A stretch of 64,000 nucleotides of DNA from NCBI GenBank assembly GCA_965368335.1, contig CBDUMN010000004.1, forward strand, positions 1,166-65,165, read 5' to 3'. Shown in pieces: positions 3,793 through 50,187 of the stretch. A program made the position numbers and the translations under genes. The notes under the pieces are model-generated. The model saw only the letters and a list, made by a program, of their open reading frames with translations, had not been told where the DNA came from and made no database searches. Every line of letters starts with the position of its first letter. The stretch's first letter is position 1. The stretch comes from an uncultured Rhodospirillales bacterium. Lineage in GTDB: Bacteria > Pseudomonadota > Alphaproteobacteria > Rhodospirillales > JAPHRK01.

Positions 3793-5286
3793 CTAGGCGA
3801 AATCCCTCCAAAACAATGGCAGAAACACGACAGCCACCGTTAAGTACTCGAGACGACCGACAATCATGCAGATATCCAGTATCCATTTTGCTGAATCGGG
3901 CAATGAGGCGAAATTCCCCGAAGGACCAATCAGCGTTCCCAGTCCTGGGCCGACATTGGAAATGGCGGTGACTGCGGCGCTAATGCTGGTCTCGAAATCA
4001 AGTCCGGCAAATCCGAGAAGAACAGTTGCTCCCGTCAAAAAGACAATGAGCAGGAAGAAAAACACCATGACCGATCCAACGATATCGGCATTCACCGGCT
4101 GATCGTTAAGCCGAGTTTGATAGACCGCATGAGGACTGATCAAGAGCCTCCCCTGACGCACTGCTTCCTTGGCCAACAGCTCAAACCGGAACATCTTGAC
4201 GCCACCCGCCGTTGACCCTGCACACCCACCGACGAACATCAGAAAAAAGAACAAAACGATAGGAAAAGCCCCCCAAAGCGTAAAGTCGCCTGAGGCGAAA
4301 CCAGTTGTCGTAACAATAGACACCACGTTAAACGCCGAGGTCCGCAAGGCATCCAAAGGCGTCATCCCCATTTCACTGACCAGCCAATAAGCCGACAGTA
4401 TGACAGCGACAACAACCAAAGAAACAAAGACTGAAATCTGGCTATCCTCACGCCAGACAGAAAACCGTCTCCGCTTGAAAAACTTGACGTACAAAGCAAA
4501 AGGCAAGCTTCCCAACATCATAAAAACCACCGCCTCCCACTCAATTGCCGCACTATTGAAATGTCCGATAGAGCCGTCGGAGGTGGAAAACCCACCCGTG
4601 GACAAAGTGGTCATGGCGTGAACGGCGGCTTCGAGAGACGTCATGCCGGACATCCAATACAACACGGCGCAAAGGGCCGTCAGGCTGGTATAGGTCACCA
4701 AAATCAGCAGCATGGCATGATAGGCCCGCGGGGCGATTTTCTCGGAGCGATCCGAAGATTCCATTCTATAAAGCTGCATCCCACCAACCCTGAGAAACGG
4801 CAAGACGATCACCGCCATGACGATGATACCAATTCCGCCCATCCATTGAAGAAACGCCCGCCAGATCAACAACCCCGGGGCCATGGCGTCAAGGCCGGAA
4901 AAAACCGTTGACCCTGTTGTCGTCAAGCCGGAAACCGCCTCGAACACCGCATCGGTGAAACTAATTTTCTCAATGGAAAACCAAAATGGCAAAGCAGCGA
5001 CCAGAGGCAAGACAATCCACATGGCGACCGTCACAAGATAGCCTTCACGCAGACTTAAATCGCTTTCTTCATGATGGACGGCGAAAACAATTGCTGCGCC
5101 AAGAATCGTCGCCGCACTGGCCCCTTCCGCAAAGGCCTTCCAGTCGCCATTGCCTGCCAAGGCTTCAACCGTCGCCGGAAGCGCCATAAGAACACCGAAC
5201 ACGACAAGAGTCGCCCCAATTGGAAACAGGACTCTGTTTACACTTGCCCAAGCAGACATATTCCAGTGTTGAACGGATTGCTTCAT
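3793..5286 (-). CDS. trkH: TrkH-family potassium uptake membrane protein
   Basis: 497 aa polytopic protein with repeated M1-P-M2 pore motifs (TTTGST, TLSTGGFST, IVTTTGFAS, ISNVGPG) diagnostic of TrkH/KtrB. Confidence 0.9.
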   Translation of the reverse strand: MKQSVQHWNMSAWASVNRVLFPIGATLVVFGVLMALPATVEALAGNGDWKAFAEGASAATILGAAIVFAVHHEESDLSLREGYLVTVAMWIVLPLVAALPFWFSIEKISFTDAVFEAVSGLTTTGSTVFSGLDAMAPGLLIWRAFLQWMGGIGIIVMAVIVLPFLRVGGMQLYRMESSDRSEKIAPRAYHAMLLILVTYTSLTALCAVLYWMSGMTSLEAAVHAMTTLSTGGFSTSDGSIGHFNSAAIEWEAVVFMMLGSLPFALYVKFFKRRRFSVWREDSQISVFVSLVVVAVILSAYWLVSEMGMTPLDALRTSAFNVVSIVTTTGFASGDFTLWGAFPIVLFFFLMFVGGCAGSTAGGVKMFRFELLAKEAVRQGRLLISPHAVYQTRLNDQPVNADIVGSVMVFFFLLIVFLTGATVLLGFAGLDFETSISAAVTAISNVGPGLGTLIGPSGNFASLPDSAKWILDICMIVGRLEYLTVAVVFLPLFWRDFA

Positions 5287-5434
5287 CGATTATGCATCCC
5301 CTCTTCCCGCCGCGACGGAAAAAGACCGCTGAGAGCAGGAAAGAGTTTCATTCGTTAAGTTGAGAAAATTGCGCCGAAAAGACCGCCCCCTCGCAATACG
5401 AGAACGGCTGTCGAAACAACGATACGCGCCGAGA

Positions 5435-5728
5435 TCAACCTCGGGGCGGACCCGTCGAATGAGGGATTTCAAAATGAAGAAGCGTCTTAACCCGTCTTAA
5501 GGGCGTGGGGTTGAATGAATAATTGTCTTGAGCAACCGTTACCCCCACCCGCCAAACTACCGTCTTTTCGCCGCCATCCGATCCCTTGAGATCATCGGCA
5601 AAATCAGTGGCTAGTTCGCTCTGGTCAAAAGCGGGAAGTAGTCCCGCAATGGCCGGAGCGCCACCAAGTGTGGCGACAATTAGTCCCAGTGTCAAAAGGC
5701 GCAGAAGCGCTTTGAAGCTCAACACCAA
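5435..5728 (-). CDS. small exported hypothetical protein
   Basis: 97-codon ORF with a TTG/GTG start preceded by GAGGAAGG (5733-5740 on the plus strand). It has a clear signal peptide (LLRLLTLGLIVATLGGAPAIAG). I recognise no family. Confidence 0.4.
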   Translation of the reverse strand: MVLSFKALLRLLTLGLIVATLGGAPAIAGLLPAFDQSELATDFADDLKGSDGGEKTVVWRVGVTVAQDNYSFNPTPLRRVKTLLHFEIPHSTGPPRG

Positions 5729-5865
5729 AGGCGGCCTTCCTCAGTTAAAGACGGGTTATATATAGTACGAAACGCCGAGAATGCCCAGACATCCGTTCAA
5801 ACACATTACAAATCAACAAGTTAAGATCAAAAAATTGTGCTTCAATCAACTGGGGACTGCGGTTA

Positions 5866-6933
5866 GTGTTATCCCATCGGAGGAGCGCGGCGGAGGAAAC
5901 ATCTCCCAAGATGTCACAAAGTCTATTTGAGCGCGAAAACAAGCTACTGGACCGCTATCAGGAAATCCTTGATCGTGCGCATGAAAATGACGCTAGCTCT
6001 GCGGTTCCGCCAGAAGAATTTGCCTCTCTGCTAGAGGAATACCGAAAGCTCCTGCGCCAATCGAAACGACTGGTCAAACTCAGCGACCGCAACGAACTCA
6101 CAGCCCGCGAAGCCAATAAGAGTTTAGAGGCGGCCTTGGAAGAGCTAAAGCAGACTCAAGCCGAGCTTGTTCAAGCGGAAAAAATGGCTTCGCTCGGACA
6201 ATTGGTCGCCGGGGTCGCCCATGAGATCAACACGCCGCTCGGCATCATTCTCACGGCCGCCAGTTCCCTGGAGGAAGAAACACGCGGCCTGAAGAAACTA
6301 GCCGAAGACGGTCAGGCCCGGAAATCCGACGTTTTCAAATACTTCGTCCATGCCGAAGAAACGGCCCACTTGATCGCCACTCACGGCAACAACGCCGCTA
6401 CGCTAATCCGTAGCTTCAAGCGGGTTTCCGTCAATCAAAGCCAAAACACCCCGGACAGCTTCGACCTTAAAGCCCTTATCGAAGATACCCTGCGCAGCCT
6501 CGGCCCCCGTTTTAAAGGAACGGGCGTCGACATCTCTCTTGATGTCCCCGAGGGTATTTTCATGCGGTCTTATCCGGGCACTCTGGTTCAGGTCTTGAAT
6601 AATCTGGTGATGAACGCTCTCATTCACGGCTTTGAAAACAGGCATGGGGGCGCCATCACCATCAGCACGGAACCAACGAAGCAAGGTGAAAGCATCGCCC
6701 TTCGGATCGCCGATACGGGCCGGGGCATTACGCCGGAAATTCGGGAGAAAATATTCGACCCCTTCGTCACCACCAAACGAGGACAAGGCGGCAGCGGCCT
6801 CGGCCTCAACATCGTGTTCAACCTGATCACCAGCAAGCTCCAAGGAAAAATTATCCTTGAAGACAGGACGGAAGACGGAACAAGCTTTCTTATGACGCTC
6901 CCCCGGGAGATCGGGACCTCCAAAGAGGATTAG
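5866..6933 (+). CDS. soluble sensor histidine kinase (coiled coil + HisKA + HATPase_c)
   Basis: H-box AGVAHEINTPLG, N-box NLVMNALIHG, G-boxes DTGRGI and GGSGLGL. No TM segments; the N-terminal ~100 aa are coiled-coil-like. The start is uncertain (GTG 5866 or ATG 5911). Confidence 0.85.
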   Translation: MLSHRRSAAEETSPKMSQSLFERENKLLDRYQEILDRAHENDASSAVPPEEFASLLEEYRKLLRQSKRLVKLSDRNELTAREANKSLEAALEELKQTQAELVQAEKMASLGQLVAGVAHEINTPLGIILTAASSLEEETRGLKKLAEDGQARKSDVFKYFVHAEETAHLIATHGNNAATLIRSFKRVSVNQSQNTPDSFDLKALIEDTLRSLGPRFKGTGVDISLDVPEGIFMRSYPGTLVQVLNNLVMNALIHGFENRHGGAITISTEPTKQGESIALRIADTGRGITPEIREKIFDPFVTTKRGQGGSGLGLNIVFNLITSKLQGKIILEDRTEDGTSFLMTLPREIGTSKED

Positions 6934-6936
6934 TAG

Positions 6937-7785
6937 ATGTCTCCAATTGACGACGATTTCTTTCTAGATGACGACGAGCCGGAACAAAAGTCGGCCTCCG
7001 CCCCACCATGGGTCATGCTGATCGTCGACGACGAAGCCGGGGTCCACGACGTCACCAGACTGGCCTTGAAAGACTTTACCTTCAGCGGACGCGGTCTCGA
7101 ATTGGTCAGCGCCTTTACCGGAGAGGAAGCGCTCGAAATTCTGCGCCAGCGCGACGACGTGGCGGTCATCTTGCTCGATGTGGTGATGGAAACCGACCAT
7201 GCGGGGCTCGACTGCGCCCGCCGCATCCGCGACGAGTTGGACAACAGCGACGTACGGATCGTCTTGCGCACCGGCCAGCCGGGCGTCGCACCGGAACGGG
7301 AGGTCATCCTCGGCTACGACATCAACGACTACAAGGCAAAGACCGAGCTGACCGCCCAACATCTCTTCACCACCGTTATCGCCGCCTTGCGCTCCTATGC
7401 GGATATTCAGGAGCTGAACGCCTACCGCAGGGACGCTTACGAGTTGGCGGCCCGGCAGAACAGCCACGAGAGCCAGATACTCGACCTTCTCCCCACGCCG
7501 GTTTTCCACTTCGATTCCCTCGGCGTTATTTCCGGCTGCAACAAGGCTTTTCTCGAATTGCTCAAGGCGGCCAAAGAGGACGTGATCGGGTTCGACTGCT
7601 TGGAGGTGCTGCCCCAGGAAGCCGCCAAGGCTTTCGAAGCCATCGACCTTGGCGCCCTCAAAGAAGGCGACAGGACTGAAGCCACCGTTTCACTGGAAAA
7701 CCGAAACTATCGGTTCTCTCTCGTCGCTTTGACGGGATCGGGCAACCACGACGTCGGCTTTGTGGGGCTTTATCTTGCTGACTAA
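6937..7785 (+). CDS. response regulator: receiver domain + C-terminal PAS-like domain
   Basis: Receiver signature LIVDDE ... ILLDVVM ... VLRTGQ ... DYKAKT, followed by about 110 aa with a PAS-like pattern (ILDLLPTPVFHFDSLGVISGCNKAFLELL). AGAGGA Shine-Dalgarno; starts 3 nt after the kinase stop. Confidence 0.8.
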   Translation: MSPIDDDFFLDDDEPEQKSASAPPWVMLIVDDEAGVHDVTRLALKDFTFSGRGLELVSAFTGEEALEILRQRDDVAVILLDVVMETDHAGLDCARRIRDELDNSDVRIVLRTGQPGVAPEREVILGYDINDYKAKTELTAQHLFTTVIAALRSYADIQELNAYRRDAYELAARQNSHESQILDLLPTPVFHFDSLGVISGCNKAFLELLKAAKEDVIGFDCLEVLPQEAAKAFEAIDLGALKEGDRTEATVSLENRNYRFSLVALTGSGNHDVGFVGLYLAD

Positions 7786-42137: not shown

Positions 42138-43124
42138 ATGCGCATTTTAAAAGCCGGTGTTGCTCTGGCTGCTCTGATGATTGCCGCGGCCCCGGCCGCT
42201 CAGGCGAAAGAAATCGTCATTAAGTTCTCGCATGTGGTTGCCGAGAACACCCCGAAAGGCCAGATGGCCAACAAATTCCGCGACTTGATCGCCGAACGTC
42301 TGGCGGGCAAAGTGAAAGTCGAAGTTTATCCGAACTCACAGCTGTTCACCGATGGCAAGGTTCTCGAAGCCATGCTGCTGGGCGATGTCCAACTGGCTGC
42401 TCCGTCGCTGTCGAAGTTCAAAAAGTACACCAAGAAGCACCAGTTGTACGATCTTCCGTTCCTGTTCAAAGACATGACCGCGGTTGAAAAATTCCAAAAG
42501 GGCCCGGCCGGTCAAGAGCTTCTGCAGGCCGCCCGCAAAAAGGGCCTCATCGGCCTTGGCTACCTGCATAACGGCTTGAAGCAACTTTCTTCCTCAAAAC
42601 CGTTGAAAGTTCCAGCCGACGCCAATGGTCTGAAATTCCGCATTATGACCTCAGACGTACTGCAGGCTCAGTTTGAAGCGGTGAACGCCAACCCGCTGAA
42701 GAAGCCTTTCTCGGAAGTCTTCACCCTGCTGCAAACCAAGGCCATCGACGGTCAGGAAAACACTTGGTCGAACATCTACTCCAAGAAGTTCTTCGAAGTG
42801 CAGGACTACATCACCGAATCCAACCACGGTGTCCTGGACTATATGGTCGTAACCTCCGCCGAATTCTGGGATAGCCTACCTGACGGTATCCGTGAAACCG
42901 TCAAAGTATCTCTCGATGAAGCCATTGCTCTGGGCAACAAAGTTGCCGCAGGCAAAGCGGTCACTGATCGTCAGAAAATTATCGATAGCGGCCGTTCCAA
43001 GGTCCTCCAGTTGACCGACGCCGAGCGTCAACAGTGGGTGGAAGCCATGAAGCCGGTCTGGGCCAAGTTTGAAGACCAGATTGGCAAAGACCTGATCGAC
43101 GCAGCGATTAAGTCCAATATGTAA
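42138..43124 (+). CDS. dctP: TRAP transporter solute-binding subunit, DctP family
   Basis: 328 aa with a signal peptide. KFSHVVAENTPKGQ and a pattern typical of DctP-type SBPs. Confidence 0.9.
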   Translation: MRILKAGVALAALMIAAAPAAQAKEIVIKFSHVVAENTPKGQMANKFRDLIAERLAGKVKVEVYPNSQLFTDGKVLEAMLLGDVQLAAPSLSKFKKYTKKHQLYDLPFLFKDMTAVEKFQKGPAGQELLQAARKKGLIGLGYLHNGLKQLSSSKPLKVPADANGLKFRIMTSDVLQAQFEAVNANPLKKPFSEVFTLLQTKAIDGQENTWSNIYSKKFFEVQDYITESNHGVLDYMVVTSAEFWDSLPDGIRETVKVSLDEAIALGNKVAAGKAVTDRQKIIDSGRSKVLQLTDAERQQWVEAMKPVWAKFEDQIGKDLIDAAIKSNM

Positions 43125-43247
43125 TGTCATAAATCTACGGCCGATCCGACTTAACGGATCGGCCGTTTTCTTTTATTCGTTAAATTGGGGCGCAGCCCCA
43201 TCTCAATTGAACGATTCATTCCAGCCATCCTTTGGGGGAATTGCGTT

Positions 43248-43904
43248 ATGGTTGCAAAGGTCGCAGACCGGATCGAGGAAGGGATCATCTCCCTGCTTCT
43301 CGTTGGGATGACGCTTTTGGTTTTTATGGAAGTCGTGCTGCGGTTCGGCTTCAATCAGAGTATTCACTGGGCGGAAGAAATGACTCTGCTTCTCGCAGGG
43401 TGGTTTGTCCTCTACGGGGCATCTTACGGTGTAAAAGTCGGGGCGCATATCGGTGTTGATGCCGTCGTGCGGCTACTCACCCCCGGAACTCGCCGTCTTG
43501 TCAGTGTTTTTGCCGTCGTCCTTTGCCTTGCCTACTGCCTCTTACTGATCCTCGGCAGTTGGGAATATCTCGCCAAAATCTACAAAATCGGCATCACCAT
43601 CGAAGACACGCGCATTCCGGGCTTCCTGCTCGCTCCGTTTGGCGAAGATTTCCTTTGGGAAACTCTTCGCATCGATACAGAAGATCCCATCGTTCCCCAG
43701 TGGATGGCACATAGCATTTTGCTCATTGGTTACGCCCTTTTGGCGTATCGATTCATTCAACTTGGCTGGAAATTCATCAAAGGAGAAGCCGAAGGCTTCC
43801 ACTTTGCCGACGAGGCTGAAGAGGCACTTGAAGAGTTGCATATTCATGAAGACGCCGAAAAACGTAAAGCTCAGCACCTAAGCCAGGAAGGAGAAAACAA
43901 ATGA
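43248..43904 (+). CDS. dctQ: TRAP transporter small permease DctQ (with ~45-aa acidic C-terminal tail)
   Basis: Start trimmed to MVAKVADRIEEG. 4 TM helices; lies between dctP and dctM and overlaps dctM by 4 nt. Confidence 0.85.
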   Translation: MVAKVADRIEEGIISLLLVGMTLLVFMEVVLRFGFNQSIHWAEEMTLLLAGWFVLYGASYGVKVGAHIGVDAVVRLLTPGTRRLVSVFAVVLCLAYCLLLILGSWEYLAKIYKIGITIEDTRIPGFLLAPFGEDFLWETLRIDTEDPIVPQWMAHSILLIGYALLAYRFIQLGWKFIKGEAEGFHFADEAEEALEELHIHEDAEKRKAQHLSQEGENK

Positions 43905-45301
43905 CTATTGCCTTCCTGTTTGTCGCCCTCTTTGGCTGCATGTTCTTGGGTGTGCCCATTGCGGTCGCCTTAGGTCTATCGAGCGTAGCAACCATTCTCC
44001 TGTTTTCCGAAGACGGCCTGGCCTCAGTGGCGCTCAAAATGTTCGCCAACGCATCCGAGCACTACACCCTGCTGGCCATTCCCTTCTTCATTCTCTCTTC
44101 GGCCTTTCTTTCTACCGGCGGCGTTGCGAAACGCCTCATTCGCTTCGCCATCTCCGTGGTCGGCCACATCAAGGGCGGCCTGGCTATGGCGTCGGTTCTC
44201 GCCTGCATGTTGTTTGCCGCCGTTTCCGGCTCCTCACCGGCCACCGTGGCGGCCATTGGCTCCATTGTCATCGTCGGCATGGTCAAGGCAGGCTATCCGA
44301 AAGCCTTCGGCGCAGGCGTCATCGCCAATGCCGGCACACTGGGCATCCTGATCCCGCCAAGTATCGTCATGTTGGTTTATTCGGCGGCTACCGAAGAATC
44401 GGCGGCCCGTATGTTCATGGCCGGTTTCATACCGGGCATTTCCATGGGTCTCCTGCTGATGGTCGCTATTTACATCATGGCGCGCATCAAGGGTCTCCCC
44501 TCACAGCCGTTTGCCGGTCTCGGCGAAATCGCCCGGTCCTGCATATCCGCCATGGGCGGCATCATGCTCATCGTTATCGTACTGGGCTCCATTTACGGCG
44601 GTGTCGCCAGCCCGACGGAAGCTGCTGCCGTATCGGCGGTTTACGCCTTCATGATCGCCACCATGGGCTATCGGGACATGGGACCACTGGCCACAGTACC
44701 CTGGCTCAAGCAAGGTGAAAATATCGGCTCGGCAACGGTTCGCAACCTGATACAGACCGCTTGGGCCCTGCCCAAAATGATTAACGACCCAGAAGTCCGC
44801 AAAGTAGTCATGGATGCGGCAAAGGTTTCGATCATGCTGCTGTTCATCATCGCCAACGCGATGCTGTTCGCCCATGTATTGACCACCGAGCGCATCCCCC
44901 ACCACATTGCAGAAGCTATCGTCGGCTGGGGTCTGCCTGCATGGGGCTTCCTAATTGTGATGAACCTGCTGCTGCTGGCCGCAGGGAACTTCATGGAGCC
45001 TTCCGCAATCATTCTGATCATGGCGCCGATCCTCTTCCCCATCGCGGTCAAGCTCGGCATCGATCCCATCCACCTGGGCATCATCATGGTGGTCAATATG
45101 GAAATCGGCATGATCACGCCGCCTGTGGGCTTGAACCTCTTCGTTACGGCGGGCATCACCGGCGAGTCTATCGGCTGGGCCATCAAGGCGGCCTTACCTT
45201 GGCTGTCGCTGCTGCTGATCTTCCTGGTGCTCATCACCTATATTCCACAGATCAGCCTGTTCCTGCCGGAATTCATCGATGAGATGCAAGGCTACAAGTA
45301 G
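43901..45301 (+). CDS. dctM: TRAP transporter large permease DctM
   Basis: 466 aa with about 12 TM helices, following the DctM pattern throughout. Confidence 0.9.
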   Translation: MTIAFLFVALFGCMFLGVPIAVALGLSSVATILLFSEDGLASVALKMFANASEHYTLLAIPFFILSSAFLSTGGVAKRLIRFAISVVGHIKGGLAMASVLACMLFAAVSGSSPATVAAIGSIVIVGMVKAGYPKAFGAGVIANAGTLGILIPPSIVMLVYSAATEESAARMFMAGFIPGISMGLLLMVAIYIMARIKGLPSQPFAGLGEIARSCISAMGGIMLIVIVLGSIYGGVASPTEAAAVSAVYAFMIATMGYRDMGPLATVPWLKQGENIGSATVRNLIQTAWALPKMINDPEVRKVVMDAAKVSIMLLFIIANAMLFAHVLTTERIPHHIAEAIVGWGLPAWGFLIVMNLLLLAAGNFMEPSAIILIMAPILFPIAVKLGIDPIHLGIIMVVNMEIGMITPPVGLNLFVTAGITGESIGWAIKAALPWLSLLLIFLVLITYIPQISLFLPEFIDEMQGYK

Positions 45302-45335
45302 TCCCAAAACCGTCAAACTTTGACGCCTGACACTA

Positions 45336-45370
45336 GGCCGCTTCGGAAAACCCGAAGCGGCCTCTTTTTT
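45336..45370 (+). terminator. rho-independent terminator of dctPQM
   Basis: GGCCGCTTCGG-AAAAC-CCGAAGCGGCC followed by TCTTTTTT. Confidence 0.85.
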
Positions 45371-45421: not shown

Positions 45422-46087
45422 TTATGCCGTTAGCAATTCTGGGGTTTCGCAGCCTTGGGCGCGGAAATTTTGTATTTTATGCCGCTGGACCCCAAGCGCC
45501 GCCATCTCTTCTTTTAAGGTTTGCAAAGCAGCCTCGGTAAGCAAGGCCGGATGAACCGTCGTTCGTATTTCATAGGAAACACCCGCTTCAAGCAGCATGA
45601 GAAGACTTTTCCTCGCCTTACGCTCACTTCCTGGCGTTTTCGTCAACTCATCATAACCACCAAACGGCGCTTTAACATCAAAACCGACCCAATCGACCAA
45701 TGGCAGAACCCGCTTTAAGGTGTCCGGATAGGGCCCCGCAGTATGCAGCCCTACCGAAAACCCAAGGTCACGGACAACCTTCATGGCGGCAGGCAAATCT
45801 CGCTGCAAGGTCGGCTCACCGCCTGAAAAAACCACCGCATCAAGCAGTCCACGGCGACGCTTCAGAAAAACCTCAATCTCCGGCCAGGACAAAACCGTCG
45901 GAGTTGCGGCTTCAAGCAGATGCGGATTGTGGCAGTAAGGGCAGCGCCAAGGACAACCCTGAAGAAACACCGTGGCAGCAAGCTTACCCGGCCAATCACA
46001 AGACGACCACCGGGCAAACCCTCCAATCCTTAGTTCAATTTCACTCACCGTCGGATTCGTTAAAATAAACCCGTTCGTGAAACTCAC
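45422..46087 (-). CDS. nrdG: anaerobic ribonucleotide reductase activating protein (radical SAM)
   Basis: Cluster motif GCPWRCPYCHN and VVFSGGEPT. The longest ORF starts at GTG 46087. A GTG at 46048 overlapping the upstream small-ORF stop (GTGAGTGA) is an alternative start. Confidence 0.9.
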   Translation of the reverse strand: MSFTNGFILTNPTVSEIELRIGGFARWSSCDWPGKLAATVFLQGCPWRCPYCHNPHLLEAATPTVLSWPEIEVFLKRRRGLLDAVVFSGGEPTLQRDLPAAMKVVRDLGFSVGLHTAGPYPDTLKRVLPLVDWVGFDVKAPFGGYDELTKTPGSERKARKSLLMLLEAGVSYEIRTTVHPALLTEAALQTLKEEMAALGVQRHKIQNFRAQGCETPELLTA

Positions 46088-46211
46088 CCTGTTTTCCCCG
46101 GTTAAAGGAACTCATGGGGCGGTGATAGCCCATGACACGGGTCCAGACCTCACAAGGCTGCCGCTCATCGTTGCTGAGTTCGATCTGAGTTTCAGGTAAA
46201 ATATGGTTCAT
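46041..46211 (-). CDS. stand-alone 56-aa ORF carrying the class III RNR glycyl-radical motif
   Basis: Not in the ORF track (<60 aa). ATG 46211 is preceded by AAGGAG (9-nt spacer). Translation: MNHILPETQIELSNDERQPCEVWTRVMGYHRPMSSFNRGKQGEFHERVYFNESDGE. RVxGY...FNxGKQxE is the NrdD C-terminal glycyl-radical signature. Confidence 0.7.
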   Translation of the reverse strand: MNHILPETQIELSNDERQPCEVWTRVMGYHRPMSSFNRGKQGEFHERVYFNESDGE

Positions 46212-46217
46212 GCGGAA

Positions 46218-48296
46218 TTACTCCTTTTCCTGATTGGTCAATTCACGGCGTTTTTTTGCCAGGATTTCTTCATCGCAAAGGGGACAGAATTCATGCTCAC
46301 CCGCGATATATCCGTGGGTTGGGCAAATAGAGAAGGTCGGCGTTACCGTGATATAGGGCAGCCTGAAACGTTCCAGCGAACGGCGCACCAACTGTTTGCA
46401 GGCCTCCGTATCGGAAATACGTTCACCCATGTAGAGATGAAGGACGGTGCCGCCGGTATATTTGGTTTGCAGTTCTTCCTGGCGTTCCAGAGCCTCGAAA
46501 GGATCATCGGTAAAGCCGACCGGAAGCTGCGAAGAATTGGTGTAGTAAGGATACTGCTCACTGCCCGCCTGCAAAATTTCAGGAAAACGCTTACGGTCTT
46601 CGCGAGCGAAACGATAGGTGGTGCCTTCTGCCGGGGTAGCCTCAAGATTGTACATATGGCCGGTTTCCTCCTGAAACTCGGTCATTCTCTTACGCACATG
46701 ATCAAGCAGACGCACTGCGAAATCATGCCCCCAGTTGCTGGTGATATCCACGGAATCGGCGGTAAAATTGCGGATCATCTCATTGATGCCGTTAACGCCG
46801 AGCGTCGAGAAGTGATTGCGCAAGGTCCCTAGGTAGCGTTTGGTATAGGGAAACAGGCCGGCATCGATATGCCGCTCAATCACCTTGCGTTTGATCTCCA
46901 GGCTATTTCGCCCAAGCTCCAACAGATAGTCAAGCCGCTCGAACAGCCCTTCCTCGTCGCCCCGATAAAGGTAGCCCAACCGAGCGCAGTTGATTGTCAC
47001 GACACCCAACGATCCTGTCTGTTCGGCGCTACCGAACAGGCCATTGCCACGCTTGAGCAACTCAGTCAGGTCCAGTTGCAGGCGACAACACATGGAGCGC
47101 ACCATATTGGGTTTCAGCTCCGAATTGACAAAATTCTGAAAATACGGCAACCCGTATTTAGCCGTCATCTCAAACAGCATTTCACTGTTCGGCCCATCCC
47201 AAGGAAAATCGGGCGTAATGTTGTATGTAGGGATGGGAAAGGTAAACACCCGCCCCTTGGCGTCTCCCTTGGTCATGACCTCGATATAGGCCCGATTGAT
47301 CATGTCCATTTCTTGCTGAAGATCACCATAGGTGAACGACATTTCCTCGCTGCCGATCACCGGAACGTCTTCCATCAGATCTTCAGGGCAAGTCCAATCG
47401 AAGGTTAGGTTGGTAAACGGAGTCTGGGTTCCCCAGCGTGATGGAACATTTAGATTGTAGACCAATTCCTGAATGTACTGCAGCACCTGCTCGTAGCTGA
47501 GATTATCTTTACGAACAAAGGGCGCCATATAGGTATCGAACGAACTGAAGGCCTGAGCTCCGGCCCATTCATTCTGTAAGGTTCCAAGAAAATTGACGAT
47601 CTGCCCGACGGCGCTCGACATATGCTTCGGCGGCCCGGCCTCAACCTTGCCCGGCACTCCGTTCAGTCCCTCATTAAGCAAGGTGCGTAGAGACCACCCA
47701 GCGCAATAGCCCGCCAGCATGTCCAGATCGTGAATGTGAAGATCGCCCGCACGGTGCGCCAACCCGATTTCGGGCGGGTAAACATGCGACAGCCAGTAAT
47801 TGGCGACCACCTTGCCCGAGACATTGAGAATCAGACCGCCGAGCGAATAACCTTGATTGGCGTTGGCGTTAATCCGCCAGTCCACCCTGTCGAGGTATTC
47901 GTTGATCGAGCTTTCCACATCGACCAACGTCTTACTGTCTTCCCGGAGGCGGGAATGCTGCTCTCGATAGACGATATAGGCCCGCGCCGTCGCCAGATGG
48001 TTAGCCGAAATGAGCACCTGCTCGACCACGTCCTGAATTTGTTCGATCTGGGCGGCGCGGCCAGGAAACCGGTGAGACAGAACCTTGACCGTCTGGATGG
48101 TCAGCAATTCCGCTTCATGCACATCAAACTCGACGCTCGCCTTGCCCGCCCGCTCAATAGCAAAACGAATTTTCTCATGATCGAACGGCACCGCAGTTCC
48201 ATCGCGTCGAACAACACCGCTAGGAAAAGCCGATACAGATAAATCGGATTGAATTGGGCGACTGTTTTGCTCAGCCGCATCAGCGAGTAACGTCAT
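46218..48296 (-). CDS. nrdD: anaerobic ribonucleoside-triphosphate reductase, large body (ATP-cone + barrel + Zn ribbon) lacking the glycyl-radical tail
   Basis: Start trimmed to MTLLADAAEQ (ATG 48296), because the longer track ORF would run through the riboswitch. ATP-cone (VVRRDGTAVPFDHEKI), and a C-terminal FSICPTHG...CPLCD. Ends at TAA 46220-46218 before any RVxGY motif. Confidence 0.9.
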   Translation of the reverse strand: MTLLADAAEQNSRPIQSDLSVSAFPSGVVRRDGTAVPFDHEKIRFAIERAGKASVEFDVHEAELLTIQTVKVLSHRFPGRAAQIEQIQDVVEQVLISANHLATARAYIVYREQHSRLREDSKTLVDVESSINEYLDRVDWRINANANQGYSLGGLILNVSGKVVANYWLSHVYPPEIGLAHRAGDLHIHDLDMLAGYCAGWSLRTLLNEGLNGVPGKVEAGPPKHMSSAVGQIVNFLGTLQNEWAGAQAFSSFDTYMAPFVRKDNLSYEQVLQYIQELVYNLNVPSRWGTQTPFTNLTFDWTCPEDLMEDVPVIGSEEMSFTYGDLQQEMDMINRAYIEVMTKGDAKGRVFTFPIPTYNITPDFPWDGPNSEMLFEMTAKYGLPYFQNFVNSELKPNMVRSMCCRLQLDLTELLKRGNGLFGSAEQTGSLGVVTINCARLGYLYRGDEEGLFERLDYLLELGRNSLEIKRKVIERHIDAGLFPYTKRYLGTLRNHFSTLGVNGINEMIRNFTADSVDITSNWGHDFAVRLLDHVRKRMTEFQEETGHMYNLEATPAEGTTYRFAREDRKRFPEILQAGSEQYPYYTNSSQLPVGFTDDPFEALERQEELQTKYTGGTVLHLYMGERISDTEACKQLVRRSLERFRLPYITVTPTFSICPTHGYIAGEHEFCPLCDEEILAKKRRELTNQEKE

Positions 48297-48409
48297 GGGT
48301 CCCCCCGTTGGTTGTGCCGAACGGAGGACGAAGACATTGATTTCGGGAAACAGGCTCAAAAGGCCACAACGCGAAACAATGACCTTCCGGAGCACCCCGC
48401 CCGAAGACA

Positions 48410-48595
48410 TCAAAAACTTGTCCTCGGCAGGTCTCCTGGCTCACGGGTCAAAGCGTCTGCCTGGCCTTCCCGGCGTCCCTAAAGACACCAGTGGCCCACT
48501 TTGGCAGCCGCTCACCGCTTACAGTTGCGGGGGCAGCTCCGGACTTGCCGCGCATGGCAGCGCACCGGATTCCCTCTTAGCCCTACATTTTGTGG
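48410..48595 (-). promoter_or_regulatory. cobalamin (B12) riboswitch in the nrdD leader
   Basis: The minus-strand RNA contains AGAGGGAAUCCGGUGCG, GCUGCCCCCGCAACUGUAAGCGG, GGGCCACUGG, and the B12 box AGCCAGGAGACCUGCC (48441-48426). All are hallmark conserved blocks of the cobalamin riboswitch. Confidence 0.85.
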
Positions 48596-48619
48596 AATGC
48601 AAGGGCCGTGGACACAACA

Positions 48620-48648
48620 AATTGATAACAAGCTCCCCCTTTTGTCAA
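48620..48648 (-). promoter_or_regulatory. candidate sigma-70 promoter for the riboswitch-nrdD transcript
   Basis: Minus strand: TTGACA (48648-48643), 17 nt, then TCAATT (48625-20). The -35 is perfect and the -10 is weak. It is placed about 25 nt upstream of the riboswitch. Confidence 0.35.
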
Positions 48649-48669: not shown

Positions 48670-50187
48670 CTACTCCGCCAATTCATCACGCATGACACGC
48701 TTGAGAGTTTTGCCCGCCGCACTACGGGGGAAGTCATCCATGATCAGCACTTGGCTGACTCGTTGGAACTTGGCTTCAACATTGGCGTTGATCCACTCCT
48801 GCAGTTCTTCAGGATTAGTGGTGTGACCGTCCTTAAGGATCACGGCGGCTACCGGGGTTTCGCCCCATTTAGCCGAGGGCAGACCGAACACGGCTACTTC
48901 CAGAATGGCCGGATGTTGAGCGGCGGTTTCCTCAATATCCTTGGGGTATACGTTGACGCCGCCCGAAATGATCATATCTTTCTTGCGATCAACCAGGAAC
49001 AGAAAACCCTCTTCATCCATGTATCCCACATCACCAGTGAACAGCCAGCCGTCCTTGACCGCGCCTTCGGTGAGGTCGGAACGTTTGTAGTAGCCCGGCA
49101 TCATGGTCGGGCCGCGCCCAACAATTTCACCCACCTCGCCCGGTGCCAGATCGTTACCGTCATCGTCGCAGATACGCATCTCAAAAAACGGCGTACAAGC
49201 TCCTACCGAGCCTTGTTTGCGTTTGGCGTCCAGTTTGTCGAGGATGGTGAGGAATCCTTCGGTCAGGCCGTAGAGCTCGTAGAACACGCCGGGCAACAAC
49301 TTCTCCAGGCGCTGCTTATGCTCAAGCAGCAAAGGCGCACCTAAAGACAGAACCATTTCCAGGCTTTGAAGTTTCTCCCGCGTCGCTTCTGGGTGGTTCA
49401 GCAGGGCGATGATCTGAGCTGGGACCATCATGATGTGGCTCACCTTCTCACGTTCGATGGTCTTGATCACCTCATCGATATCGAAGGCTTTGTGGAGAAT
49501 ATAGGTCGCCCCGTTGAAAAACGTCGGCATGAGGGTGACGAAAGCGCCGTTGAAAATCACCGCGCCGGTATGCAGCGTCACGCTTTCAGGCGTGAAGCGA
49601 AAGGCCTGACTGAACAGCGAACAATACATGGCCCGCACATAGTGGGTATGGACGATACCCTTGGGTTCACCGGTGGTGCCGCTGGAATAGATGATGTTGT
49701 AAACGTCCTGGTCGGAAAGCCCGATATCGGGCGGTTCACTCTCTGATGCGCTCTCAACCAGATCGGCGTAGCGCCTGAAATTGGGTCGGCCGGAACCATC
49801 GACAATGATGTAATTTTCTTTAGCGATCTCCAGATCGTCCTGCACCGCTTCGACCAATGGCGCATAAGATTCAACGGTCAGCACCATCACCGTATCGGCA
49901 TTGCGTAACAGATTGGCTAACCCCTTGGGCTGCAAAAGCGGACTCATGGGCACCACTACAGCGCCCATTTTTCCGAGCGCCCAATAGAGCGTCAAAAGCT
50001 CCAGGCAATTGGGCAGTACGGTAGCGATTTTCTGATCCTTTTTGACACCGGCGGCGATCAAGGCGTTGGCCAATTGGTTGACCCGGCCATTAAAGGTTTT
50101 GTAGTCAAGCCGCTCATCGCCGAAGATCACCCCGGTATGATCGGAGCGATACTGAGCTTGGCGGGTCATGATGCTGCCGATGTTCAT
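48670..50187 (-). CDS. AMP-dependent acyl-CoA synthetase/ligase
   Basis: 505 aa with AMP-binding motifs YSSGTTGEPKG, GYGLTE-like YELYGLTEG, and TGDVGYMDEEGFLFLVDRKKD. Confidence 0.9.
   Translation of the reverse strand: MNIGSIMTRQAQYRSDHTGVIFGDERLDYKTFNGRVNQLANALIAAGVKKDQKIATVLPNCLELLTLYWALGKMGAVVVPMSPLLQPKGLANLLRNADTVMVLTVESYAPLVEAVQDDLEIAKENYIIVDGSGRPNFRRYADLVESASESEPPDIGLSDQDVYNIIYSSGTTGEPKGIVHTHYVRAMYCSLFSQAFRFTPESVTLHTGAVIFNGAFVTLMPTFFNGATYILHKAFDIDEVIKTIEREKVSHIMMVPAQIIALLNHPEATREKLQSLEMVLSLGAPLLLEHKQRLEKLLPGVFYELYGLTEGFLTILDKLDAKRKQGSVGACTPFFEMRICDDDGNDLAPGEVGEIVGRGPTMMPGYYKRSDLTEGAVKDGWLFTGDVGYMDEEGFLFLVDRKKDMIISGGVNVYPKDIEETAAQHPAILEVAVFGLPSAKWGETPVAAVILKDGHTTNPEELQEWINANVEAKFQRVSQVLIMDDFPRSAAGKTLKRVMRDELAE

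Follow-up and report, generated by a model that had tools for sequence, protein, structure and literature searches.

The class III ribonucleotide reductase (RNR) encoded in a 64,000-nucleotide (nt) stretch of DNA from an uncultured Rhodospirillales bacterium (GenBank contig CBDUMN010000004.1; the whole stretch is called the window below) is divided between two adjacent genes, a large nrdD gene for a catalytic chain of 692 amino acids (aa) and a small nrdD gene for a 56-aa peptide that carries the glycyl-radical loop. We consider it highly probable that this is a two-polypeptide class III RNR whose radical subunit is separately translated. To our knowledge, the glycyl-radical enzymes described so far all have their radical domain at the C-terminus of the catalytic chain. 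The window system is a class III RNR in every respect tested except that the loop is on its own polypeptide, and the same two-piece coding was found in 78 of 78 related loci with an upstream large gene, which confirms the split claimed in a preliminary description of the window made from its letters. A separate, obligate radical subunit that is both natural and widespread would alter the picture of class III RNRs and bring it conceptually nearer to the alpha/beta logic of class I.

The two nrdD products of the window

The large product contains an ATP-cone at residues 28–115 (Pfam, E 8.2e-21), covers positions 2–532 of the 562 in the Pfam NRDD profile (E 9.5e-177) and scores 1142 bits over positions 4–661 of 684 in NCBIfam NF006126, for which the cut-off is 548 bits. 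Its alignment to the crystal structure of Thermotoga maritima NrdD (4COI) ends at the CPVCGK Zn ribbon, and the open reading frame (ORF) closes with CAG GAA AAG GAG TAA, with no glycyl-radical loop before the stop. The loop (RVxGY...NxGK) was not found on the same polypeptide but sits on the separate 56-aa ORF. The predicted Zn ribbon, C-P-x-H-G...C-P-x-C-D, is shared without exception by 19 large subunits of diverse genomic origin, and its His presumably occupies the place of the second Cys in the T4 and Escherichia coli enzymes. Beyond the ribbon the split large subunits share a conserved tail, CDxE[IL][IL]A[RK]K, that is not present in fused enzymes. The finger-loop cysteine motif, for which MGCR or MCCR was sought, is present as MCCR, one of two motifs that predominate in the finger loops of class III enzymes (PMC9669993). 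On this motif the enzyme would belong to the double-cysteine lineage, for which the use of thioredoxin, and possibly also of formate, has been discussed (PMC9669993).

Between the TAA of the large ORF (46220–46218) and the ATG of the small one (46211–46209) there are only the two codons TTC CGC, the ATG being in the frame of the large ORF and 9 nt from an AAGGAG Shine-Dalgarno (SD) sequence. The peptide matches positions 531–562 of 562 in Pfam NRDD (E 9.6e-9, above the gathering cut-off) and 649–683 of 684 in NF006126; the last 32 positions of the NRDD profile correspond to the glycyl-radical loop, with Gly28 in RVMGY. A Pfam scan of the peptide at E values up to 1 gave no Gly_radical match, only NRDD and a sub-threshold DUF1497, and a phmmer search of the peptide alone against the PDB sequences returned zero matches even at E values up to 10. 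Twenty-eight of the 56 positions are invariant among 22 alpha- and betaproteobacterial homologues, whose common pattern is L..xERQPCE[VI]WTRVMGYHRPxSSFNxGKxGE..ER.[YF]F.E.

The small ORF ends in a TGA (46043–46041) that overlaps by 8 nt the gene of the radical activase, nrdG, if the latter starts at GTG 46048–46046; an alternative in-frame GTG at 46087 would extend the overlap to 47 nt, and gene callers have chosen both starts across sister assemblies. From GTG 46048 the product matches TIGR02495 (NrdG2) with E 2.7e-58 and 196.5 bits against a cut-off of 131 bits. The sequence statements of the preliminary description all hold. Sequence and profiles confirm a large ORF with ATP-cone, barrel and Zn ribbon that ends at the TAA; the in-frame ATG, the 56 codons and the peptide it quoted agree exactly with the sequence; the NrdD glycyl-radical signature it saw there is recovered by the profile searches; the AAGGAG lies at 46226–46221, 9 nt before the ATG; and the overlap of the TGA with a GTG of nrdG is real. 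The coupling to nrdG that it proposed is made plausible by this overlap, which recurs in relatives.

Distribution of the split and alternatives to it

A protein search with the peptide gave 3796 homologues, the best 120 of which are all 56–79 aa long. Among their sources are Martelella, Paracoccus, Burkholderia, Pusillimonas, Janthinobacterium and Acetobacteraceae, and they are labelled either 'anaerobic ribonucleoside-triphosphate reductase' or 'hypothetical'. A scan of one genome per species detected relatives of the peptide in at least 593 genomes. The C-terminus of the large gene lies upstream of the small gene in 78 of the 83 genomic loci examined, and in each of these 78 the large ORF ends 10–35 residues past the Zn ribbon; no fused nrdD is present among them. 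Alignment of related loci, a check put forward in the preliminary description, thus found the stop and the ATG conserved and the SD sequence usual. Loci labelled Coriobacteriia, Sutterella and Chlamydiae show the arrangement too. Large-subunit identity is 71–79% among genomic loci, including metagenome-assembled genomes (MAGs) labelled Coriobacteriia, Chlamydiae and Verrucomicrobiota, and 66–75% for two loci on viral contigs. Judged from these sequence comparisons, the fission of nrdD is both genuine and old. Four loci that had seemed to be fused (L023, L045, L062 and L080) proved to contain chance open frames in high-GC DNA, and are split once the frame of the large gene is anchored by tblastn.

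The small protein could be imagined to serve only as a spare part of the GrcA type, rescuing an oxygen-cleaved full-length NrdD encoded elsewhere, with the large gene that lacks a glycyl-radical domain (GRD) not being its normal partner. The unlinked and phage-associated small genes described below, which recall grcA and T4 Y06I, speak for such a role, but we regard it as improbable: 78 of the 83 genomic loci have the small gene flanked by a GRD-less large gene and nrdG, the large subunits are so similar across very different lineages that they must be under selection themselves, and the nrdDG genes on megaplasmid pHG1 of Cupriavidus necator H16, which are needed for denitrifying growth, are of the split type. 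For pHG1, RefSeq lists in this order the large gene (676 aa, 'ribonucleoside triphosphate reductase'), a 66-aa 'nrdD' 142 nt further on and an overlapping nrdG; the large and small ORFs are in different frames. Earlier work, summarised in the genome paper of C. metallidurans CH34, found H16 nrdDG to be essential for complete denitrification and the defect to be bypassed by B12, which shows that a locus of the split type works in vivo. The same paper gives NrdDG of CH34 as Rmet_5137 and Rmet_5139, which leaves one locus tag between them.

Programmed read-through or recoding of the stop codon, which would yield a fused NrdD and make the separate small ORF incidental, is suggested by the window junction itself, since TAA TTC CGC ATG is in frame and would give a contiguous protein. 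It is nevertheless very unlikely when the relatives are considered. Only 18 of 79 loci have the small ORF in the frame of the large gene, any of the three frames being seen, and the distance from the large stop to the inferred small start varies between an overlap of 41 nt and a gap of 221 nt, so that some spacers are far too long; the C. necator locus combines its gap with a change of frame. An ATG opens the small ORF in all 79 loci (median length 64 codons), an SD-like motif is found 4–16 nt before it in 62 of them as compared with 11% at random ATGs in the same DNA, and stop and start overlap as ATGA in 14. In the window, moreover, the stop is TAA followed by T, which is an efficient termination context. 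The pattern of frame, gap, ATG and SD thus argues against either a single nonsense mutation or read-through and fits independent initiation, the interpretation to which the AAGGAG had already led the preliminary description.

That the large subunit is radical-free or inactive and the small ORF a decaying remnant of its C-terminus is scarcely credible. Among 83 distinct nucleotide versions of the 35-codon core, the entropy is 0.37, 0.29 and 1.13 bits at the first, second and third codon positions, and 67% of the pairwise codon differences are synonymous; the protein is almost invariant while synonymous sites vary freely, and the activase gene is kept, overlapping the small ORF. The small ORF is under strong purifying selection at the protein level. 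Homologous small ORFs encode 52–125 aa (median 64), with a variable N-terminus of roughly 10–25 residues ahead of a conserved core that starts about 11 residues before the WTRVMGY motif.

Six contigs from six different metagenome samples match the window exactly in the 56-aa protein and in the junction AAGGAG TAA TTCCGC ATG. Across 3300 bases they show 7 differences from it, and hence represent a sister strain that was independently assembled. The chance that the split stems from faulty sequencing or assembly or from a recent nonsense mutation, the true gene being a single nrdD of ~750 aa or a fresh pseudogene, is practically nil even though two ORFs in the same frame and two codons apart are what a single point mutation would leave, given that six independent assemblies share the junction, that 78 of 78 relatives are split at the same place, mostly in different frames and with gaps reaching 221 nt, that ATG and SD of the small ORF are conserved and the ORF itself is strongly selected, and that the large subunits have a conserved tail of their own; the split in the window is not an error.

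Fused relatives and the position of the break

When the large subunit was scored against 1.84 billion cluster representatives, 7202 relatives were obtained. Of 110 representatives that cover the Zn ribbon, 51 have a glycyl loop, about 40–46 residues past the last Zn-ribbon cysteine motif (e.g. CPTCGKETEVYSRVVGYYRP), and 59 end without one. In a rough neighbour-joining tree the window clade forms a contiguous GRD-less block beside fused sisters with 'WSRVMGYHRP' or 'WTRVMGYFRP' loops. The tree of representatives suggested many fission or fusion events, but because some of the GRD-less representatives may be merely truncated we claim no count of split origins. Fused relatives at about 65–70% identity join both parts directly (CPxC-GEACEVWTRVMGYFRP), from which it follows that the break falls in a short linker and that the conserved Cys (Cys20 of the peptide) is a trait of the subfamily and not specific to the split.

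Two further features were seen among the representatives. Many of them (in the range P0121–P0270) are 1000–1900 aa long and match the query in 2–5 separate stretches, and look as if they carry one or more inteins. A C-terminal thioredoxin- or NrdH-like domain (CPNC...APTL) is present in P0137, P0143, P0161, P0168, P0178 and P0193, following a glycyl-loop motif in the five of these that entered the tree, and suggests a built-in reductant.

Structural model and proposed mechanism

An AlphaFold2 model was built of the two products joined end to end; its input alignment combined fused, large-only and small-only homologues. The model has a mean predicted local distance difference test (pLDDT) score of 85.5 and a predicted TM-score (pTM) of 0.79; the junction and the first ~10 residues of the peptide lie below 50, and peptide residues 18–48 reach 84–86 and are modelled as a strand, a loop with Gly28, a short strand and a helix. 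In a Foldseek search the joined model has its best matches among class III RNR structures. Considered along with gene order and the nrdG overlap, it fits a non-covalent complex of large and small subunits in which NrdG would generate the radical on Gly28 and the finger-loop cysteines would receive it.

In the mechanism that we propose, the riboswitch found upstream of the large gene, both nrdD genes and nrdG would form one transcript, and the close or overlapping junctions would couple translation of the three proteins. The large subunit would contribute the ATP-cone, a ten-stranded barrel that bears the MCCR finger loop, and the Zn ribbon, while the small subunit, initiated from its own AAGGAG and ATG, would contribute the glycyl-radical loop with Gly28. 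NrdG with S-adenosylmethionine (SAM) would remove a hydrogen from Gly28 while the small subunit is either free or already docked, and the small subunit would dock non-covalently in the barrel at the site taken by the C-terminal domain in fused NrdD. The radical would then move to a finger-loop cysteine, and reduction of the nucleoside triphosphate (NTP) would proceed as in other class III RNRs. How an activase reaches a glycine buried in the barrel is a long-standing question, and a free peptide of ~60 residues as the NrdG substrate would offer a tractable system for studying activation. Glycyl-radical proteins are cleaved by oxygen at the radical glycine (2026 review). Damage of this kind would cost only a peptide of roughly 6.5 kDa, which could be replaced, while the large subunit survived, and the split thus suggests low-cost repair under fluctuating oxygen for denitrifiers and other facultative anaerobes.

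Several points weigh against a two-polypeptide enzyme working in this way. The 56-aa product is predicted from the sequence. The modelled chain was artificially joined and fused homologues were part of its alignment, so that the placement of the peptide leans on homology. The window ORFs are in frame, and rare read-through to a fused protein may occur in this organism. The advantage of replacement after oxygen damage is argued from glycyl-radical chemistry and from the taxa concerned, which are mostly denitrifiers and facultative anaerobes. As for novelty, the open literature that was searched and read, including reviews of RNRs and glycyl-radical enzymes and two comprehensive analyses of RNR phylogeny and extensions, yielded no split class III RNR; an earlier description may exist, and our uncertainty on this point is moderate.

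Unlinked and phage-associated small genes

A genomic copy was called unlinked if no large gene or intact nrdG lies within 4 kb, and the small gene is unlinked in five genomic loci (Table 1). These include two Sutterella genomes, in which the core of the orphan peptides is nearly identical to that of the linked ones of sister species. Relatives of the peptide are encoded on 276 contigs of IMG/VR. Among the best 80 of these 276 loci, which hold 55 distinct peptides on contigs of 32–67% G+C, about 73 are without the large gene and nrdG within 4 kb. In one (L112:3974-4147) the small gene follows those for a holin, an endolysin, an Rz-like spanin and phrog_3230, and its peptide matches phrog_4132, annotated as 'unknown function'. 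When GenBank phage genomes were searched with the peptide by tblastn, only a single weak match appeared, so the association with phages rests on uncultivated IMG/VR contigs.

Large-subunit relatives on viral contigs were scanned with an alignment as query (L170–L249), a single large protein as query having matched nothing, and comprise 29 that are fused, 19 that are split with an adjacent small ORF and 17 without a glycyl loop within at least 600 nt. In L090–L092 and L094 the large-gene match is broken by about 370–950 nt, which may reflect an intein or intron.

The unlinked and phage-like copies fit a peptide that acts in trans as an exchangeable module. Action in trans is likewise in keeping with those viral contigs whose GRD-less large gene has no small ORF within at least 600 nt. 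A stronger proposal, which we hold only tentatively and think somewhat doubtful, is that the peptide is a diffusible, exchangeable radical cartridge, activated by NrdG off the enzyme, swapped into the large subunit and discarded after cleavage by oxygen, with unlinked and phage copies able to supply it in trans. If so, phages could sustain or take over the anaerobic deoxynucleoside triphosphate (dNTP) supply of the host by means of one tiny gene, and the orphan small genes on phage-like contigs possibly point to an unrecognised one-gene auxiliary function.

Cysteine clusters end many small subunits (KKCCCRK, VSCTCRGK, CACAAE; L097–L169, L028, L044, L057, L075) and many GRD-less large subunits (CKACKG, CNCLG, CKVCK; P0126, P0129, P0134, P0135, P0138). 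As a speculation, these tails might form a metal site between the subunits. The window pair is without such clusters and has only the invariant Cys20; this residue, and likewise the tail clusters, may help anchor the peptide on or close to the Zn ribbon of the large subunit.

Relation to known systems

Canonical single-chain NrdD, as in T4, E. coli, T. maritima and Neisseria bacilliformis, has the same ATP-cone, barrel, finger loop and Zn ribbon and shares the RVxGY glycyl loop and an adjacent radical-SAM activase. It differs in that the chain here is broken between Zn ribbon and glycyl loop, the large part having gained a conserved helical tail and the small part having a variable N-terminal extension.

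Spare-part glycyl-radical proteins are represented by GrcA and its phage homologue, T4 Y06I, both serving pyruvate formate-lyase (PFL), and are known only for formate lyases (2026 review). Like GrcA/YfiD and Y06I, the window peptide is a small stand-alone carrier of the radical glycine that would complete a barrel without a working radical domain, its activation by the cognate activase is presumed to be alike, it is modelled with a flexible N-terminus followed by a folded radical loop, and both kinds of gene have unlinked and phage-borne copies. The parallel with GrcA drawn in the preliminary description accordingly holds as a functional analogy; it does not hold as homology, since the peptide belongs to Pfam NRDD with no Gly_radical match and its partner is an RNR instead of PFL. 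The window-type small gene also usually lies between catalytic and activase genes. A radical domain is always missing from the partner chain, which makes the small protein an obligate subunit and not a repair part.

The nearest precedent for a split RNR is class II NrdJa/NrdJb of Pseudomonas aeruginosa, in which the chain is likewise divided between two adjacent genes near the C-terminus and the zinc-finger region is involved. That enzyme, however, is of class II and uses adenosylcobalamin, there is no protein radical on the small piece, and NrdJb is a large folded IscU-like and zinc-finger protein, not a loop of ~60 aa. In class I RNRs the stable radical also resides on a separate small subunit, a parallel that we see as conceptual; beta is an unrelated ferritin-like protein with a metal-tyrosyl radical and long-range transfer, and it needs oxygen.

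Occurrence in named organisms and annotation

The split layout is also found on Bradyrhizobium japonicum plasmids; one of these bears a group II intron domain (RF02005, 125 bits; L002:5557-5773) about 1.3 kb 3' of nrdG, near a transposase gene. The peptide has tblastn matches on a Paracoccus denitrificans replicon, for which the table lists no genes at that place, and on 133 Ralstonia replicons. Carriers include model and applied organisms such as C. necator, P. denitrificans, Bradyrhizobium and Ralstonia solanacearum. NrdD of Pseudomonas aeruginosa (PA1920) is reported as 76 kDa (PMC12284477), which by a comparison of size only falls in the class of the GRD-less 676-aa C. necator large subunit.

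Both pieces have already been annotated by RefSeq and JGI, and the arrangement is visible to annotators in that the small ORF is called 'nrdD' or hypothetical in databases. It is often missed by gene callers or labelled 'hypothetical', and surveys of RNRs that filter by length or assume a single chain may misclassify GRD-less large subunits.

Operon layout and neighbouring genes

The riboswitch, both nrdD genes and nrdG all lie on the minus strand of the window (Table 1), within which there is no second copy of the large, small or nrdG gene. Longer versions of the large gene, starting at TTG 48413 or ATG 48410 (731 or 730 aa), appear in the mechanical ORF listing and in the JGI annotation. We prefer ATG 48296, which is preceded by GGGGGG, because the 730-aa version would begin within the riboswitch, at the 3' edge of the aptamer; ATG 48296 is thus more likely to be the true start.

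Table 1. Positions of the nrdD/nrdG operon elements in the window and of unlinked small genes in other loci
Feature	Position	Strand	Basis or remark
Cobalamin riboswitch aptamer, operon leader	48409..48625	-	Rfam RF00174, 128.3 bits, full model 1-189
nrdD large (catalytic) subunit, 692 aa	46218..48296	-	ATG 48296 to TAA 46220-46218
Finger-loop motif MCCR, residues 402-405, presumed thiyl-radical site	47082..47093	-	motif definition PMC9669993
Zn-ribbon ligand motifs CPTH...CPLC, residues 658-674 of large subunit	46275..46325	-	sequence
Shine-Dalgarno AAGGAG for small ORF	46221..46226	-	last two sense codons of large ORF
nrdD small subunit, 56 aa, loop RVMGY	46041..46211 incl. TGA	-	NRDD profile match
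Gly28 codon, small subunit	46130-46128	-	read from sequence
Invariant Cys20 codon, small subunit	46154-46152	-	read from sequence
nrdG activase (radical SAM)	45422..46048	-	TIGR02495 NrdG2, Pfam Radical_SAM
12-bp GC-rich hairpin between convergent nrdG and dctM	45335..45363	.	terminator-like match on + strand
Unlinked small gene, Magnetospirillum fulvum	L004:4001-4171		just upstream of class I nrdA (4262-6184) and nrdB (6166-7296)
Unlinked small gene, MAG	L041:4001-4147		between dnaE and rnhA
Unlinked small gene, two Sutterella genomes	L053 and L059:4001-4135		among transporters and peptidase
Unlinked small gene	L066:4001-4174		with only remnants of large gene and nrdG

Of 18 related loci tested, 7 likewise have a cobalamin riboswitch ahead of the large gene. 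Such a riboswitch fits repression of a B12-independent enzyme when a B12-dependent class II RNR can work. In two loci a second cobalamin riboswitch was found 3' of nrdG (L013:4846-5062 and L019:4808-5007), presumably serving the next gene. The hairpin downstream of nrdG has, on the minus strand, an A-run before it and no T-run after it; it is likely the end of the operon and would act in this way on nrdG transcripts.

The operon is flanked by a convergent tripartite ATP-independent periplasmic (TRAP) transporter, DctP/Q/M (42900–45301; dctM 43901–45301), and, upstream on the same strand, by a gene for an AMP-binding acyl-CoA synthetase (48670–50187). The six sister contigs share this neighbourhood of TRAP transporter and acyl-CoA synthetase genes in identical form.

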